From a virus, in IMG/VR virus record IMGVR_UViG_3300017963_000024, positions 22,833 through 86,832 of that record: 64,000 nucleotides of DNA, one strand, 5' to 3'. The notes below the pieces were generated by a model that worked only from the letters and a program-made list of their open reading frames with translations, was not told where the DNA came from and ran no database searches. Position numbers and translations under genes: made by a program. Shown here in pieces: positions 33,376-37,667 of the stretch (positions are counted from its first letter, which is position 1; every line of letters starts with the position of its first letter).

Positions 33376-33652
33376 CGACGTTGATTTCAAGTTTACTTGG
33401 AAGATTCTCTCTTGGCCTGAACAGGAAGAAGGCTTTCTAACAAAGCTTTTTGATCCTGATCGCCTTGGATTTCCTCTCGATCCTGACGAGAAGATTACTT
33501 CCGAGCGTATTAGAAGAGCCTTGGAATCTCCTCAATTCCGAGATGAGTTCAGACGGAACTTGAATGAGATTGTGGAGGAAACGGCTAGAAAGATATTTCG
33601 AGAAGCTTTGGAAAAGGGTTTTACGGCCATTGAGCTAGAGCCAACACCATGA
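33365..33652 (+). CDS. hypothetical protein
   Basis: Coupled between TerS and TerL. Confidence 0.55.
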   Translation: MATNDVDFKFTWKILSWPEQEEGFLTKLFDPDRLGFPLDPDEKITSERIRRALESPQFRDEFRRNLNEIVEETARKIFREALEKGFTAIELEPTP

Positions 33653-36093
33653 GTGAAGTAGCCTTTGATCCGCTTTCGGTAATCGACGACAGCACTCCTT
33701 GTGCTTTTAGTCGGTTTCCTCAGACGGACGACGAACTTTGGGAGTTCGTGGCAACGGTTTGGGGCGTTGAGATCCCAAGGAAAAAGATTTGCCCCCAGCA
33801 CTGTGCTCCGTTCGATGCTTTTGCCGATGCCTTCTTCTGTAAAGCGGAAAACGCGATCTGGCTCGCAAGCCGTGGGTTGGGTGGCAAGAGTTTCCTTCTT
33901 GCTACGCTGGGCCTCACTGAAGCAGTTTGTCTTGGGGCGACGGCAACGGTCCTTGGTGGATCAGGCGCACAATCACAAAACGTTCACAGGTATATGCAAG
34001 ATATGTGGAGTTACCCTGCCGCGCCACGTCAATTGCTTGCGGAGGACCCCACGAAAATGAGGACCGTTCTTAAGAACGGTGCCTATGTTCAAGCTTTGCT
34101 GGCTTCATCCACCAGTGTTCGTGGCCCTCACCCTGTAAGGCTTCGGTGCGACGAGTGCCTCACTGGAGATTCACTCGTTCTAATGGCTGATGGTTCTAAG
34201 AAACGTTTGGACAGGGTAGAACCCTCAGACAAGGTGGTTACTTTCTATAGGGGTTGTTTATGTGAGGGTGTTGTGTTAGCCTCTGAGTATAAGGGTGTCA
34301 GAGAGACACTAAAGCTTAGAACGGAGGCTGGTAATGAAATCGTCTGCACAAAAGAACATCCGGTCCTCGGAGAAAGTGGTTGGCGAGAAGCGTCTACCTT
34401 TGCAGCGGGGGATTACATCTGGCTATCCGATAACTCTGCCGACGTACTCCCACCGGGACGTGAAGAAGTGTCTCGACTGTGGGAAAGCTTTGAAGCACAA
34501 GATGGCTCGGCTGGTGACGGGGTACTGCAAAGAGTGTCTAACGGAGAAGGTCAAGAAACCGAAGTTCTGCGAAGAATGCGGGACTCAGGTTGGAAGCCAA
34601 TCGAAGCTTTGTCGGCCCTGTTGCTTCAAACGAAGGAAGAAGTCAAAAGCTTTTTGCAAGGATTGTGGAACCGAATTGCGTTTAGCTTCTACGAAGCGTT
34701 GTCGCCCCTGCCACCTCAAGTTCATGTCCTCGGAACGCATGGTTTCGAGGATGTCGGCTTCCAGAGCTACGGCTATGAAAAACAGGGAGGAGAGATCGAG
34801 AGCCGAAACACAGGCGGCGGAGCTTCTTCGACTGTTCAAGATAAACTTTCGAGAGCAAGTTCCAGCCTCCCGTTATATTCTGGACTTCGTTCTGGACGAC
34901 TACAAGGTTGTGATCGAGGTACACGGGGCGTATTGGCACGACAGGCCCGCTGCGAAGAAAAGGGATCAAGCAAAAAAGAAAGCTTTGGAGAAGAGGGGTT
35001 GGCAGGTTCTTTTCTGGCGAACCGAAAAGCTCCACCTGTGGTGGCTCGATCTCGTGTCGCCTCCATTCAACAAGCTGGGAGAAGTGGAGTCTATGATATA
35101 AGAGTTTCTCCTGGCAAGAGCTTCGTCGCTAACGGTATCATTGTTCATAACTGTGACGAGATGAAGCTCGACATTCTCGATGCGGCTCTAGGCCAGCCGA
35201 TGTCGAAGGACGGAATTCCCGCTCAAACAGTAATGTCCTCGACGCACCACTATCCTGACGGTACGGTCACAGAGCTTCTGAATCGAGCCAAAGAACGTGG
35301 GATGCCCGTCTATAACTGGTGCTACCGGGAAAGTATGGCCGGGGGCTGGCTTTCCCCTGCCGATGTGGAAGCCGCCCGTGCTCGTGTTCCACTGGCAATG
35401 TGGGATGTTGAGTTTGAGCTTCAGGAGCCGAGTCCTGAAGGACGCGCCATCCAGCCACAAGCTGTAGAGTGGACTTTCGATCAAAGCTTGGGATACTTTG
35501 AAGGCCAAGCGAATGAAAAGATCGTGCTTGAACCCCCACAGGAGGGGGCTAAGTACGTGACCGGGGCAGATTGGGCGAAGGAGAGTGACTGGACAGTCAT
35601 CATTACGTTCCGAATTGACGTTACTCCTTGGAAGCTTGTCATGTTCGAGCGGCTTGGCCGACGCCCTTGGCCGGAAATGGTTGAAAAATTCAATGACAGG
35701 CTTACTCGCTACCGAGGTGTCGGCGTCCACGATGCAACAGGGCTGGGAAATGTTGTGGATGACTTCGTGACCAACAGAGCCGCCAGAGGGGAAGTTTTGG
35801 TGGGAAAGAATAGGGCTGAAATTTTCTCTGAATACGTTGCAGCACTGGAAAACCGTGAAGTGGTTGCACCGAGAATTGACTTCATGTATGCAGAGCACAA
35901 GTATTGCACGGTGGATGATTTGTGGGGGAGTGGGCACCCGCCTGATTCCTTTGTTGCTGGTGCGCTGGCATGGCGAGGCAAACGTTTCAGCCAGTCTACG
36001 GGAACCGTAAGGTCCATTGTGTCCCACCCGAAGTGGAAAGAGCGGTCGGACGAGAGGATCGCACGTCGGCTTGAACCTTGGAAGTTCGACTAG
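33649..36093 (+). CDS. terL: terminase large subunit containing an intein
   Basis: ASRGLGGKS Walker A; RG.H...LRCDE(CDEM) Walker B; C-terminal RNase H-like GADWA, DATGLG, DSFVA. Confidence 0.92.
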   Translation: MSEVAFDPLSVIDDSTPCAFSRFPQTDDELWEFVATVWGVEIPRKKICPQHCAPFDAFADAFFCKAENAIWLASRGLGGKSFLLATLGLTEAVCLGATATVLGGSGAQSQNVHRYMQDMWSYPAAPRQLLAEDPTKMRTVLKNGAYVQALLASSTSVRGPHPVRLRCDECLTGDSLVLMADGSKKRLDRVEPSDKVVTFYRGCLCEGVVLASEYKGVRETLKLRTEAGNEIVCTKEHPVLGESGWREASTFAAGDYIWLSDNSADVLPPGREEVSRLWESFEAQDGSAGDGVLQRVSNGEGQETEVLRRMRDSGWKPIEALSALLLQTKEEVKSFLQGLWNRIAFSFYEALSPLPPQVHVLGTHGFEDVGFQSYGYEKQGGEIESRNTGGGASSTVQDKLSRASSSLPLYSGLRSGRLQGCDRGTRGVLARQARCEEKGSSKKESFGEEGLAGSFLANRKAPPVVARSRVASIQQAGRSGVYDIRVSPGKSFVANGIIVHNCDEMKLDILDAALGQPMSKDGIPAQTVMSSTHHYPDGTVTELLNRAKERGMPVYNWCYRESMAGGWLSPADVEAARARVPLAMWDVEFELQEPSPEGRAIQPQAVEWTFDQSLGYFEGQANEKIVLEPPQEGAKYVTGADWAKESDWTVIITFRIDVTPWKLVMFERLGRRPWPEMVEKFNDRLTRYRGVGVHDATGLGNVVDDFVTNRAARGEVLVGKNRAEIFSEYVAALENREVVAPRIDFMYAEHKYCTVDDLWGSGHPPDSFVAGALAWRGKRFSQSTGTVRSIVSHPKWKERSDERIARRLEPWKFD
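34156..35151 (+). mobile_element. intein (332 aa, TerL residues 170-501) inserted in the Walker B region
   Basis: N-terminal CLTGDSLVLMADG, block B CTKEHPV, block F VYDIRV, C-terminal IIVHN followed by extein Cys. Confidence 0.93.
34334..35101 (+). CDS. Zn-finger repeat plus DUF559/Vsr-like endonuclease nested in the +1 frame of the intein
   Basis: GGAGG at 34323-34327 before ATG; six CxxC pairs; FREQ...YILDF...VIEVHGAYWH...RD..K...L...GW.VL. Confidence 0.85.
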   Translation: MKSSAQKNIRSSEKVVGEKRLPLQRGITSGYPITLPTYSHRDVKKCLDCGKALKHKMARLVTGYCKECLTEKVKKPKFCEECGTQVGSQSKLCRPCCFKRRKKSKAFCKDCGTELRLASTKRCRPCHLKFMSSERMVSRMSASRATAMKNREERSRAETQAAELLRLFKINFREQVPASRYILDFVLDDYKVVIEVHGAYWHDRPAAKKRDQAKKKALEKRGWQVLFWRTEKLHLWWLDLVSPPFNKLGEVESMI

Positions 36094-36101
36094 GAGTGGT
36101 C

Positions 36102-37667
36102 ATGTCCCGAAGCAAAAAGCGAATAATGAAGACCGGGGGAGCCGTTCAGGTTTCCAAATCAACGGTCGTCAAAGAAGATCAAGAACCACTCCTGCCGACG
36201 ATGTTCGTGAGGGTCATTAAGGCGGCAAAGCCAGTGACTTCTACTCCTCCAAGTCAGCAGATTACAAACGATGACTTCAGTTCGTACTACGAAGGCGAGG
36301 TTGTCGTCCAACCTTATGTAGACCCTTCTGCGCTTCTAAACCTCGCTCAAGAGAATCCTGTTCATTGTGCTTGCATCACTGCTGTTGCGGCTGATGCTAC
36401 TGGCCGGGGTTGGAAATTGGAGTGGTCTGGTCAGCCTGATCTTAGGATCGAGCAGAAGGATGTGAAGCAAGCACAGCAAGAACTTTGGCAAAAGCTTGAA
36501 GACATTACACCAAATCTCACGTTTTCCGAACTCCTTCGTCAGGCAGTTTGGGAGCTTCGGGCAATTGGGTGGGCCGCTTGGGAGGTCGCTCGTGACAGCA
36601 GTGGCGAAATTGGTGCTCTCTACCCAATTCCCGCCCACACCGTTCGAGTTTTGAAGGACAAGACTGGTTACATCCAGATTCGAGGTGGCAAAGCTCGATA
36701 TTTCCGAAACTTTGGTCAGGAGGGCGCGCTTCCAGAAGGTGTGGAGTTCGTGAATGTGGATACAGGCGATGCTTCCCGAGCCAATGAACTTCTTTTCTTC
36801 CAATCTTACCATCCACGAACTCCTTTCTATGGACTTCCCGATTGGGTTTCCGCCGTTTCGTCGATGGCTGAGATGACTCAGATTCGAGAGTTCAATATGT
36901 CGTTCTTCTCAAGTGGAGGGATGGCAGACAGAATCATCACTGTAAAAGCCGATAACGAGGCAGTTGCCGATGCGCTTGGTAAAAAGATCGAGGAGCAAGT
37001 CCAAGCTGCTAAAGGTCTAGCTCACGTTTCCATAGTAATCAGTGGAACGACTGATGTTGAAGTTCGTGTGGAATCAATGAGCCGAACCGAGGGCGATAGG
37101 GATGGTCAGTTCAGAACTCGGCGGGATGACCTCGTAAAAGAAATTCTCATGGCCCACAGTGTTCCTCCATACAGAATCGGCTTTGCCGAGCTAGGAACTC
37201 TTGGAGGATCAGCAGCCCGTGAAATGCTTCGAGCCTACCGCTTTGGGGCAATCGAGCCTGTCCAGACAATCATCGAAGACCGACTAACTCAAACTTTGTT
37301 CGGTCAACAAGGCTTGCAGATTCCATCAAGCATGAGATGGGTTCTGCAAGACGTTGATTTTGAGTTGGTTGATTTGAATCTTCTCATCGCTACCCGAGGA
37401 GTTCAAAATGGTTTTGCCACTCCCTCACAAGCTGGACAGTTGATGGGATTCGAGCCAACTGACGATCCAGCGGCAAACCGTCTCTATATGGATGGTGTTC
37501 CTATCACTGGAGATGTTCGTGAAGGCCAACCATCTGGATTATCTACAGAGCAACCAAGCGGATTGCCAGAAGGAATGGCTCCGACCGCCCCGACACCGAT
37601 GGAGACTCCAGCACCACAGAGCGGGGGCAATGGTCGAGGAGGAACGATTGAGGTTGCTTCCGCGTGA
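36102..37667 (+). CDS. portal protein (PBSX-like)
   Basis: HCACI, GWAAWEV.R, FYGLPDW, HSVPP; follows TerL. Confidence 0.88.
   Translation: MSRSKKRIMKTGGAVQVSKSTVVKEDQEPLLPTMFVRVIKAAKPVTSTPPSQQITNDDFSSYYEGEVVVQPYVDPSALLNLAQENPVHCACITAVAADATGRGWKLEWSGQPDLRIEQKDVKQAQQELWQKLEDITPNLTFSELLRQAVWELRAIGWAAWEVARDSSGEIGALYPIPAHTVRVLKDKTGYIQIRGGKARYFRNFGQEGALPEGVEFVNVDTGDASRANELLFFQSYHPRTPFYGLPDWVSAVSSMAEMTQIREFNMSFFSSGGMADRIITVKADNEAVADALGKKIEEQVQAAKGLAHVSIVISGTTDVEVRVESMSRTEGDRDGQFRTRRDDLVKEILMAHSVPPYRIGFAELGTLGGSAAREMLRAYRFGAIEPVQTIIEDRLTQTLFGQQGLQIPSSMRWVLQDVDFELVDLNLLIATRGVQNGFATPSQAGQLMGFEPTDDPAANRLYMDGVPITGDVREGQPSGLSTEQPSGLPEGMAPTAPTPMETPAPQSGGNGRGGTIEVASA

Follow-up and report, generated by a model that had tools for sequence, protein, structure and literature searches.

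The 64,000-nucleotide stretch of viral DNA analysed here (the window; bases 22833-86832 of the 86,832-base IMG/VR virus record IMGVR_UViG_3300017963_000024, a record with direct terminal repeats) carries a probable gene for the large subunit of a phage terminase, terL, with an intein in its coding sequence. Within the intein DNA, on the same strand and in the +1 frame relative to terL, lies a second open reading frame (ORF) that encodes a putative homing endonuclease. The features of the locus are listed in Table 1. Translation of terL across the insert reads ...VRLRCDE/CLTGDSLV...IIVHN/CDEMKLD, with slashes at the predicted junctions. The nuclease ORF is contained entirely in the intein DNA. 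Its frame is open from 34313 to 35098, i.e. for 786 nucleotides (nt), inside the open intein frame, and the remaining four frames across the region are closed. A first-pass annotation, made from the sequence letters alone, had reported that both frames stay open for about 770 nt and had placed in the +1 frame, at 34334-35101, an ORF of 255 amino acids (aa) preceded by GGAGG; both observations were reproduced. The window has 19 stop-to-stop ORFs that are 300 codons long or more; of these, terL has the longest open run in an alternative frame (262 codons; the next is 196).

Table 1. Features of the terL locus and its insert, in window coordinates (aa, amino acids).
Feature	Coordinates	Strand	Basis
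terL precursor gene, intein included, 814 aa	33649-36093	+	ORF
N-extein, 169 aa; P-loop-like SRGLGGKS; ends in Walker-B-like RLRCDE (34138-34155)	33649-34155	+	sequence
Class-1 intein, 332 aa, terL residues C170-N501 (C1...H331 N332), then Cys+1	34156-35151	+	Pfam Intein_splicing; invariant residues
N-terminal splicing lobe, blocks A and B (CLTGDS..., CTKEH)	34156-34425	+	intein frame better conserved
GGAGG Shine-Dalgarno-like site, 6 bases 5' of the nuclease ATG; formed by intein codons T-E-A	34323-34327	+	sequence
Putative homing-endonuclease gene, +1 frame, 255 aa plus TAA (35099-35101)	34334-35101	+	ORF; profile matches; same +1 offset in 6/6 loci
Intein-frame tether, about 205-210 aa	34426-35055	+	conservation at null level; no Pfam family
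Three tandem four-cysteine zinc ribbons; CxxC starts at residues 46, 65, 79, 93, 108, 123	34469-34711	+	Pfam DZR 27.4 bits; CxxC positions
Vsr-like/EDxHD nuclease domain, residues about 143-237, with E158, D184, E195, H197, H202, D211	34760-35044	+	7-sequence profile against PDB; invariant in 7/7
C-terminal splicing lobe, blocks F and G (VYDI...IIVHN)	35056-35151	+	intein frame better conserved; invariant D314, F323, V330, H331, N332
C-extein, 313 aa plus stop, starts CDEMKLDILDAALGQPM	35152-36093	+	sequence; extein comparison
Portal gene 3' of terL	36078-37667	+	Pfam Phage_portal, E 3.9e-24

The Pfam profile Intein_splicing (PF14890) matched the whole TerL with 39.9 bits (cut-off 35.8) and the intein alone with 43.3 bits; in the genome search its score was 42.6 bits. 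The complete set of splicing motifs that the first-pass annotation had read in the TerL frame, from C170 to VHN501 and the Cys that follows, was confirmed by this match and at the same positions. Residues C1, T65 and H68 (the TxxH of block B), D314, H331, N332 and Cys+1 are invariant in five of five aligned inteins, and the string HNCDE was found at six of six loci (the window and the metagenome loci L001-L005 described below). A Pfam search of the intein frame gave no endonuclease family, in agreement with the earlier remark that the intein middle carries neither a LAGLIDADG nor an HNH motif. Removal of the intein (814 minus 332) would leave a mature TerL of 482 aa, the length given at the outset, which is colinear with the intein-less relatives. 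The insert is probably a splicing-competent class-1 mini-intein, its two lobes joined by a tether of about 205 aa. A search with the intein region returned the window's own protein and unrelated inteins of other host proteins, and nothing else. Three proteins considered as relatives of the terL intein (P0154, P0156 and P0159) were rejected; their inteins sit after a GGSGK P-loop motif and not in terL.

The identity of the host ORF as terL is probable. It is based on a weak match of the N-extein to PHROG 9, 'terminase large subunit' (E 4.3e-5), on the readable P-loop-like and Walker-B-like motifs, on synteny with the portal gene, and on 237 relatives of the C-extein on viral contigs (IMG/VR). 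No match to the Pfam terminase families was obtained with either extein.

Recurrence of the +1 layout and avoidance of stop codons

Metagenomes were scanned with an alignment of the nuclease and three database relatives as query. The scan returned 43 loci, of which L001-L005 are full-length. Each of the five has its nuclease ORF within a terL intein, in the +1 frame, so that the layout is seen at six of six loci when the window is counted. The five nucleases are 37-48% identical to that of the window. The intein frame is open in four of the five metagenome loci, and closed in L002.

The probability of an open intein frame was estimated with the 255-aa protein held fixed and its synonymous codons resampled by extein codon usage. 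For the window this null predicts 19.1 stops in the intein frame and a probability of 5.3e-11 of finding none. The corresponding values, given the respective nuclease proteins, are 1.2e-13 for L001, 1.9e-4 for both L003 and L004, and 7.1e-5 for L005. A stop can arise in the intein frame only where the third base of a nuclease codon is T and the next codon starts with AA, AG or GA. In the window, 74 nuclease codons are followed by AA, AG or GA and none of them ends in T; elsewhere 50 of 180 do. It is the choice of codons in the nuclease that keeps stops out of the intein frame.

These results bear on the possibility that the layout is an artefact, that is, that the endonuclease is truly in frame with the intein and is shifted by two compensating assembly indels. 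This possibility had been raised with the first-pass annotation itself. The window does come from a metagenome assembly, and the two Logan runs that match it consist of identical 62,416-base contigs, which may be the source data, and perhaps one data set filed twice, and were not counted as independent. Over 2,445 bases these contigs, at a word depth of about 30, show 0 differences and 0 gaps. An artefact gives no reason to expect an open intein frame, whereas the frame is observed open at P = 5e-11; moreover, five loci at 37-48% nuclease identity have the same +1 offset, four of them with an open intein frame. Compensating indel errors are excluded by the +1 layout shared among divergent, independent loci, and the weight that we leave to an artefact is negligible.

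The closed frame of L002 can be traced to one base. L001 and L002 differ at 11 of 2,409 bases, three of them in the overlap of the two frames; of these three, two leave the nuclease protein unchanged, and all three change what the intein frame encodes. At L002:1023 (compared with L001:3661) a C>T change is silent in a His codon of the nuclease and converts a Gln codon of the intein frame to TAA, which splits terL in two. L002 also has DPHP in place of the conserved GPHP. A sequencing error or a dead copy could explain L002, as could the beginning of a transition to a split-intein 'fractured gene'.

Frame conservation and the nuclease family

Conservation was compared between the frames over 166 gap-free codon columns of an alignment of five sequences. 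The nuclease frame has a mean pairwise identity of 0.477, as against 0.235 for the intein frame and 0.242 for the closed third frame. When nuclease codons were resampled synonymously with stops avoided, the identity expected in the intein frame was 0.228 +/- 0.009. Since the observed value is about that of the null, the residual conservation of the intein frame is a shadow of the nuclease frame. Among the codon positions of the nuclease frame, conservation is 0.548 at the first, 0.640 at the second and lowest, 0.377, at the third. It had been pointed out that lack of conservation of the +1 ORF would speak against a separately encoded nuclease; the ORF is intact at six of six loci and, as shown by the identity above, it is the conserved one of the two frames.

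The direction of constraint changes along the insert. Up to about 34425 the intein frame is the better conserved; the nuclease frame takes over at 34426 and leads until 35055, and from 35056 on the intein frame leads once more. In the two bins within 34336-34425, the identities of the intein and nuclease frames are 0.43 vs 0.31 and 0.27 vs 0.13, and in the bin 35056-35100 they are 0.34 vs 0.08. The middle of the intein is an unconstrained tether, and staying open is the only constraint that can be detected on it. The reverse null gave much less: the probability that the +1 frame is open, given the intein-frame protein, is only 0.03 to 6e-4. It counts for little, since what is read in the intein frame is already a by-product of the nuclease frame.

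A further observation concerns the composition of the tether. In five of five loci (34426-35055 of the window, and L001 and L003-L005) it is less hydrophobic than in the synonymous-resampling null, with z about -0.7 to -2.3 each, which may point to weak selection in favour of a linker that is disordered and does no harm.

The 255-aa product scored above the Pfam cut-offs (in brackets) for DUF559, 46.7 bits (20.6), Vsr, 27.6 bits (27.0), and the double zinc ribbon, 27.4 bits (27.3), and a PHROG search matched it to several endonuclease families. When a profile of seven nucleases was compared with PDB, the best solved structure was 3r3p_A (catalytic domain of I-Bth0305I; E 5.7e-12), followed by Vsr (1cw0_A, from E. 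coli, 1.8e-6; 1vsr_A, 1.9e-5). The DUF559/Vsr-like call of the first-pass annotation was thus upheld by both the Pfam profiles and the structural match. I-Bth0305I is described as the prototype of the EDxHD family; its gene lies in a group I intron within recA, the enzyme is equipped with NUMOD-type DNA-binding motifs, and the construct that was crystallised has the substitutions D196A and H213A (Taylor et al. 2011, PMC3239194). Residues E158, D184, E195, H197, H202 and D211 are invariant in seven of seven nucleases. D184 and H202 align with the two alanines of the 3r3p construct, and E158, E195 and D211 are also matched to the composite active site, a mapping that is read from the profile alignment. 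The motif of that site is E, D, an acidic residue where Vsr has F62, H and D. Because 3r3p ranks ahead of Vsr and five invariant positions match the active site of I-Bth0305I, the protein is by sequence a member of the Vsr-like EDxHD homing-endonuclease family.

The N-terminal half differs from that of the prototype as described. A NUMOD-type region was not found in it, and six CxxC motifs with the double zinc ribbon match stand in its place, in an enzyme nested in an intein rather than encoded in an intron. The difference is one of accessory domain and not of catalytic family. The six CxxC motifs noted earlier are all present; they form three four-cysteine zinc ribbons, however, and not six pairs. 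The ribbons are presumed to be the DNA-binding module of the nuclease. In the close relatives P0001-P0013 and L001-L005, between 4 and 11 CxxC motifs precede the nuclease, which suggests that DNA is recognised by a modular array of zinc ribbons whose length varies.

Relatives of the nuclease are numerous and mostly short. At E <=1e-3 an exhaustive, profile-free search gave 1,500 representatives; 51 remain at <=1e-10, and 12 at <=1e-30. Almost all are 80-340 aa long. Longer relatives with the nuclease fused in frame were not found by a word-index search, which is weak evidence; the exhaustive search did find one such protein. This distant match, P0047, is a 1,274-aa metagenome protein with two inteins, each with an in-frame DUF559/Vsr-like domain (Pfam: two Intein_splicing and two DUF559 matches), and from this domain layout it follows that the canonical in-frame pairing of intein and nuclease exists too. 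A scan of viral contigs with the single nuclease protein gave no match. The nuclease alignment returned two distant loci from viral contigs (24% identity), where the ORF is a 557-aa zinc-finger protein, and 13 loci from genome contigs that cover the nuclease core only, many of them from metagenome-assembled genomes of candidate division WOR-3. These two sets of loci say nothing about inteins. Loci L006-L059 were rejected as intein carriers: the ten long ORFs that overlap nuclease-core matches include none with a Pfam family (0/10) and are open frames of high G+C content. The gene of Microcystis phage MaeS, the sole and weak match among GenBank phages (27.5%), was likewise rejected as a nested relative, as it is a free-standing hypothetical gene.

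The nuclease start, the insertion site and their distribution

As a background for the GGAGG in front of the nuclease ATG, this string precedes 4.2% of all ATGs in the window, and 14 of 75 ORFs of at least 120 aa that start with their first ATG. Sites of GGAG type occur at the homologous place, before the homologous ATG, in L001, L003 and L004. In these three loci the site is formed from the codon of a Glu in the strand of the intein near block B, and the alignment sets the Glu of the window apart. No conserved or significant RNA fold was seen at the nuclease start (z-scores of -0.23, 0.47, 1.06, -2.15 and 0.85), and a ribosome site controlled by a hairpin is therefore unsupported. A promoter scan found no promoter-like site on the + strand within terL, which fits translation of the nuclease from the terL mRNA.

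Both frames lying on one mRNA, with a separate promoter-like site not found, would also suit a programmed +1 ribosomal frameshift that yields a fusion of N-extein, N-terminal intein part and nuclease. Such a fusion is at odds with three features. At each locus just 15-75 nt separate the opening of the +1 frame from its first ATG or GTG. In four of five lineages (the window, L001 with its near-copy L002, L003 and L004) an ATG stands at the homologous place with a GGAG-type site upstream. Finally, the five z-scores give no conserved RNA structure at the nuclease start. A frameshift product seems to us most improbable, and internal initiation the preferred route to the nuclease.

The insertion site was examined in the best 80 of the 237 IMG/VR loci, ranked by C-extein alignment; 78 of these have both exteins, and L092 and L096 are without the N-extein. 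No insert was present at the site in any of the 78, and in 77 the gap at the predicted junction is 0 nt. The boundaries of the intein are therefore confirmed to the base. In the remaining intein-less locus, L121 (2569-3803), the matches to the N- and C-extein are in different frames and overlap by 28 nt (a gap of -28) at the Walker B site; a frameshift, or else an error of assembly, may have fallen precisely on the homing site. The closest relatives among the 80 fetched, L060 and L061, are 71% identical to the window over 448 columns. Their empty site reads RLRLDE/CDEMKLPILD, with the Cys that would serve as Cys+1 already there.

A FastTree tree was built from 81 extein rows (the window, L001, L004, L005 and 77 viral loci; L002, L003, L092, L096 and L121 were left out). 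In it the window groups with the intein-less L060 and L061 with an SH-like support of 99. The intein label requires three changes on this tree, and at least two gains or losses are forced by well-supported branches. The element is sporadic among terL homologues, as expected of a mobile element. L004 has the longest branch of the tree, and its C-extein (L004:4626-5504) matches that of the window over the first 97 residues only (tblastn); the downstream nuclease half of the L004 TerL seems to be of a different type.

The insert occurs in two registers that lie three codons apart. In the window and L004 it follows ...(C/L)DE, and in L001, L003 and L005 it precedes CDE; in both registers TGC-GAY-GAR stands directly 3' of the insert. 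In the window the two junctions lie at 34147-34155 and 35152-35160. A plausible origin of the shift is a slip by one unit of the tandem xDE-xDE repeat of the Walker B motif.

Taking distribution and conservation together, we weighed the alternative of a relic, in which the +1 ORF was once mobile and is now silent or no longer homing, while the intein is inherited vertically and persists since terL needs splicing. The deep divergence of the carriers, among which recent transfer is not seen, agrees with this, as does L002, which shows that copies tolerate damaging changes. A silent ORF would gain stops, however, and the +1 ORF is intact at six of six loci that have diverged to 37-48% identity. 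In addition, the putative catalytic residues E158, D184, E195, H202 and D211 are invariant in 7/7, the variation at third positions marks the nuclease frame as selected, and the closest terL relatives are without the element. On balance a relic is distinctly unlikely, and a nuclease that would still be expressed and homing is preferred.

Proposed homing cycle and comparison with known systems

The first-pass annotation had proposed that the nuclease is encoded separately in the +1 frame and that the intein middle is an overprinted tether. This proposal is supported by the recurrence of the layout, by the conservation of the frames, by stop avoidance, by the invariant catalytic residues and by the empty sites. 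We consider it likely (with a probability of about 0.8) that the Walker B motif of terL is occupied by a composite selfish element, made up of a mini-intein and an overprinted homing-endonuclease gene of the free-standing type. Expression of the +1 ORF, splicing and cleavage are parts of this reading that we infer from sequence. The terL mRNA, translated in frame 0, would give the 814-aa precursor, from which the 482-aa TerL (...RLRCDE-CDEMKLD...) would be spliced. Translation from the internal start, GGAGG-N6-ATG (34323/34334), would give the 255-aa nuclease. In a mixed infection the nuclease would cut an intein-less terL near the Walker B codons, and repair of the cut terL would copy intein and nuclease together (homing).

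Several points weigh against the composite element. The stop in the intein frame of L002 means that at least one natural copy may be defective. The probability of 1.9e-4 obtained for L003 comes from a codon-usage null built on very short extein sequence. The start is less clear in L004, where GGAGG abuts the ATG and a GTG two codons later has the 6-base spacing, and L005 is without a clear Shine-Dalgarno site at its first ATG. L001, L004 and L005 sit on long branches of the FastTree tree, which makes their placement unsure. Near-identical inteins in divergent exteins were not seen among the carriers, that is, there was no sign of recent transfer, and the carrier lineages are far apart; the patchiness could come partly from losses. 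Lastly, all carriers are uncultured, and the runs listed as containing the sequence include none of RNA.

The nuclease could alternatively have been co-opted, i.e. be retained mainly for the benefit of the phage, for example by cutting the terL of competitors or host DNA. Co-infecting phages can interfere with one another through intron-encoded endonucleases. Long retention in divergent lineages would suit such a role, and so would a target in an essential gene of intein-less competitors. The sequence features, on the other hand, are indistinguishable from those of plain homing, and co-option as the main cause of retention appears very unlikely to us. The four alternatives considered here (artefact, relic, frameshift fusion and co-option) are rather improbable even when taken jointly.

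A more tentative extension, which we regard as doubtful, is that the intein and its +1 zinc-ribbon/EDxHD nuclease form a unit of long standing whose parts are adapted to each other, rather than the chance result of a recent invasion. The pair would then have been kept in at least four deeply divergent phage lineages and have moved between the two registers, the tether would be selected beyond stop avoidance, and L002 would be a natural first step to a fractured gene.

Endonucleases encoded out of frame or antisense in inteins, of which the first-pass annotation had mentioned alternate-frame cases in phages, are in print (Gosselin 2025; Phillips 2026). Gosselin, Arsenault & Gogarten (bioRxiv 10.1101/2025.01.02.630785) report 63 non-canonical endonucleases among nearly 800 actinophage inteins. 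The types described in that preprint are in-frame HNH, antisense LAGLIDADG, antisense Vsr-like and a same-strand 'frame 3' endonuclease VII-like type, in four host proteins including terL, and invasion of inteins by free-standing endonuclease genes is proposed. The element in the window resembles these cases in being a full intein, a type often found in terL there, with a middle that is unrecognisable in frame and an endonuclease encoded by a separate overlapping ORF. The Vsr-like/EDxHD type with matches to PDB 3R3P also occurs among them. The differences are as follows. In the preprint's account the Vsr-like type is antisense only, and the one same-strand out-of-frame type is endonuclease VII-like in frame 3, whereas the nuclease here is on the sense strand in +1. 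Here there are three zinc ribbons, and the word zinc is absent from the preprint's main text. The carriers in that survey are actinophages, and here they are uncultured phages from sediment and seawater metagenomes.

Phillips, DeSimone & Gogarten (bioRxiv 10.64898/2026.09.14.751524) describe frame-specific selection on an overlapping LAGLIDADG gene in the cyanobacterial dnaX intein, and credit Gorbalenya 1998 with the first notice of this overlapping endonuclease. As far as described in that preprint, the two systems share an endonuclease in an overlapping frame, purifying selection on the endonuclease frame with relaxed selection on the intein frame, a sporadic distribution, and a proposed secondary invasion of a mini-intein. 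They differ in that the dnaX case involves LAGLIDADG, a bacterial chromosomal gene and a '+2ORF', whereas an EDxHD/Vsr-like enzyme in phage terL is found here.

Dassa et al. 2009 (PMC2677866) described the Vsr-like family as free-standing genes between the halves of split inteins, in 'fractured genes'. The same nuclease family thus lies within intein DNA in both cases, with its own ORF and start and with a 3' end that overlaps the C-terminal intein part. In the fractured genes, by that description, the host gene is in two ORFs and the intein acts in trans. In contrast, the intein frame of the window reads through the nuclease, and terL is one uninterrupted 814-aa ORF that encodes a single precursor, so that the broken host gene that defines fractured genes is not seen; a stop is present in L002 alone. 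Following the model of Dassa 2009 and Gosselin 2025, the element would most likely have originated when a free-standing endonuclease gene invaded a mini-intein.

The ShiLan insertion in a phage methylase (Arsenault et al. 2025, PMC11855218) contains a hidden, out-of-frame HNH endonuclease and is non-splicing. Like the insert in terL, it is read through in the host frame and carries its endonuclease in another frame. As reported there, however, it has no splicing domains and is retained in the protein, whereas a complete intein would remove the read-through peptide here. A same-strand +1 gene of Vsr-like/EDxHD type with zinc ribbons in a whole terL intein was not found in the literature search; the supplementary tables of the Gosselin preprint, which lay outside its scope, may list closer cases. 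The general principle is known, and what the present analysis adds is breadth and quantitative support, not a new mechanism.

The locus is a clean natural case of two-frame coding, where one can follow along the bases which frame is under constraint: the intein frame in the two end parts, the nuclease frame between them. Because gene callers tolerate overlaps on the same strand only when these are short, they miss one of the two genes in such layouts. The arrangement supports the view of intein origins in which the splicing domain comes first and the endonuclease later, and a single nuclease family links whole inteins with the split inteins of fractured genes. The combination of zinc ribbons with an EDxHD enzyme is an uncharacterised architecture.

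One minor observation concerns the 5' end of terL. Its ATG overlaps the stop of an upstream 95-aa ORF (ATGA, 33646-33652), and there is no clear Shine-Dalgarno site, which suggests that translation of terL is coupled to that of the upstream ORF.

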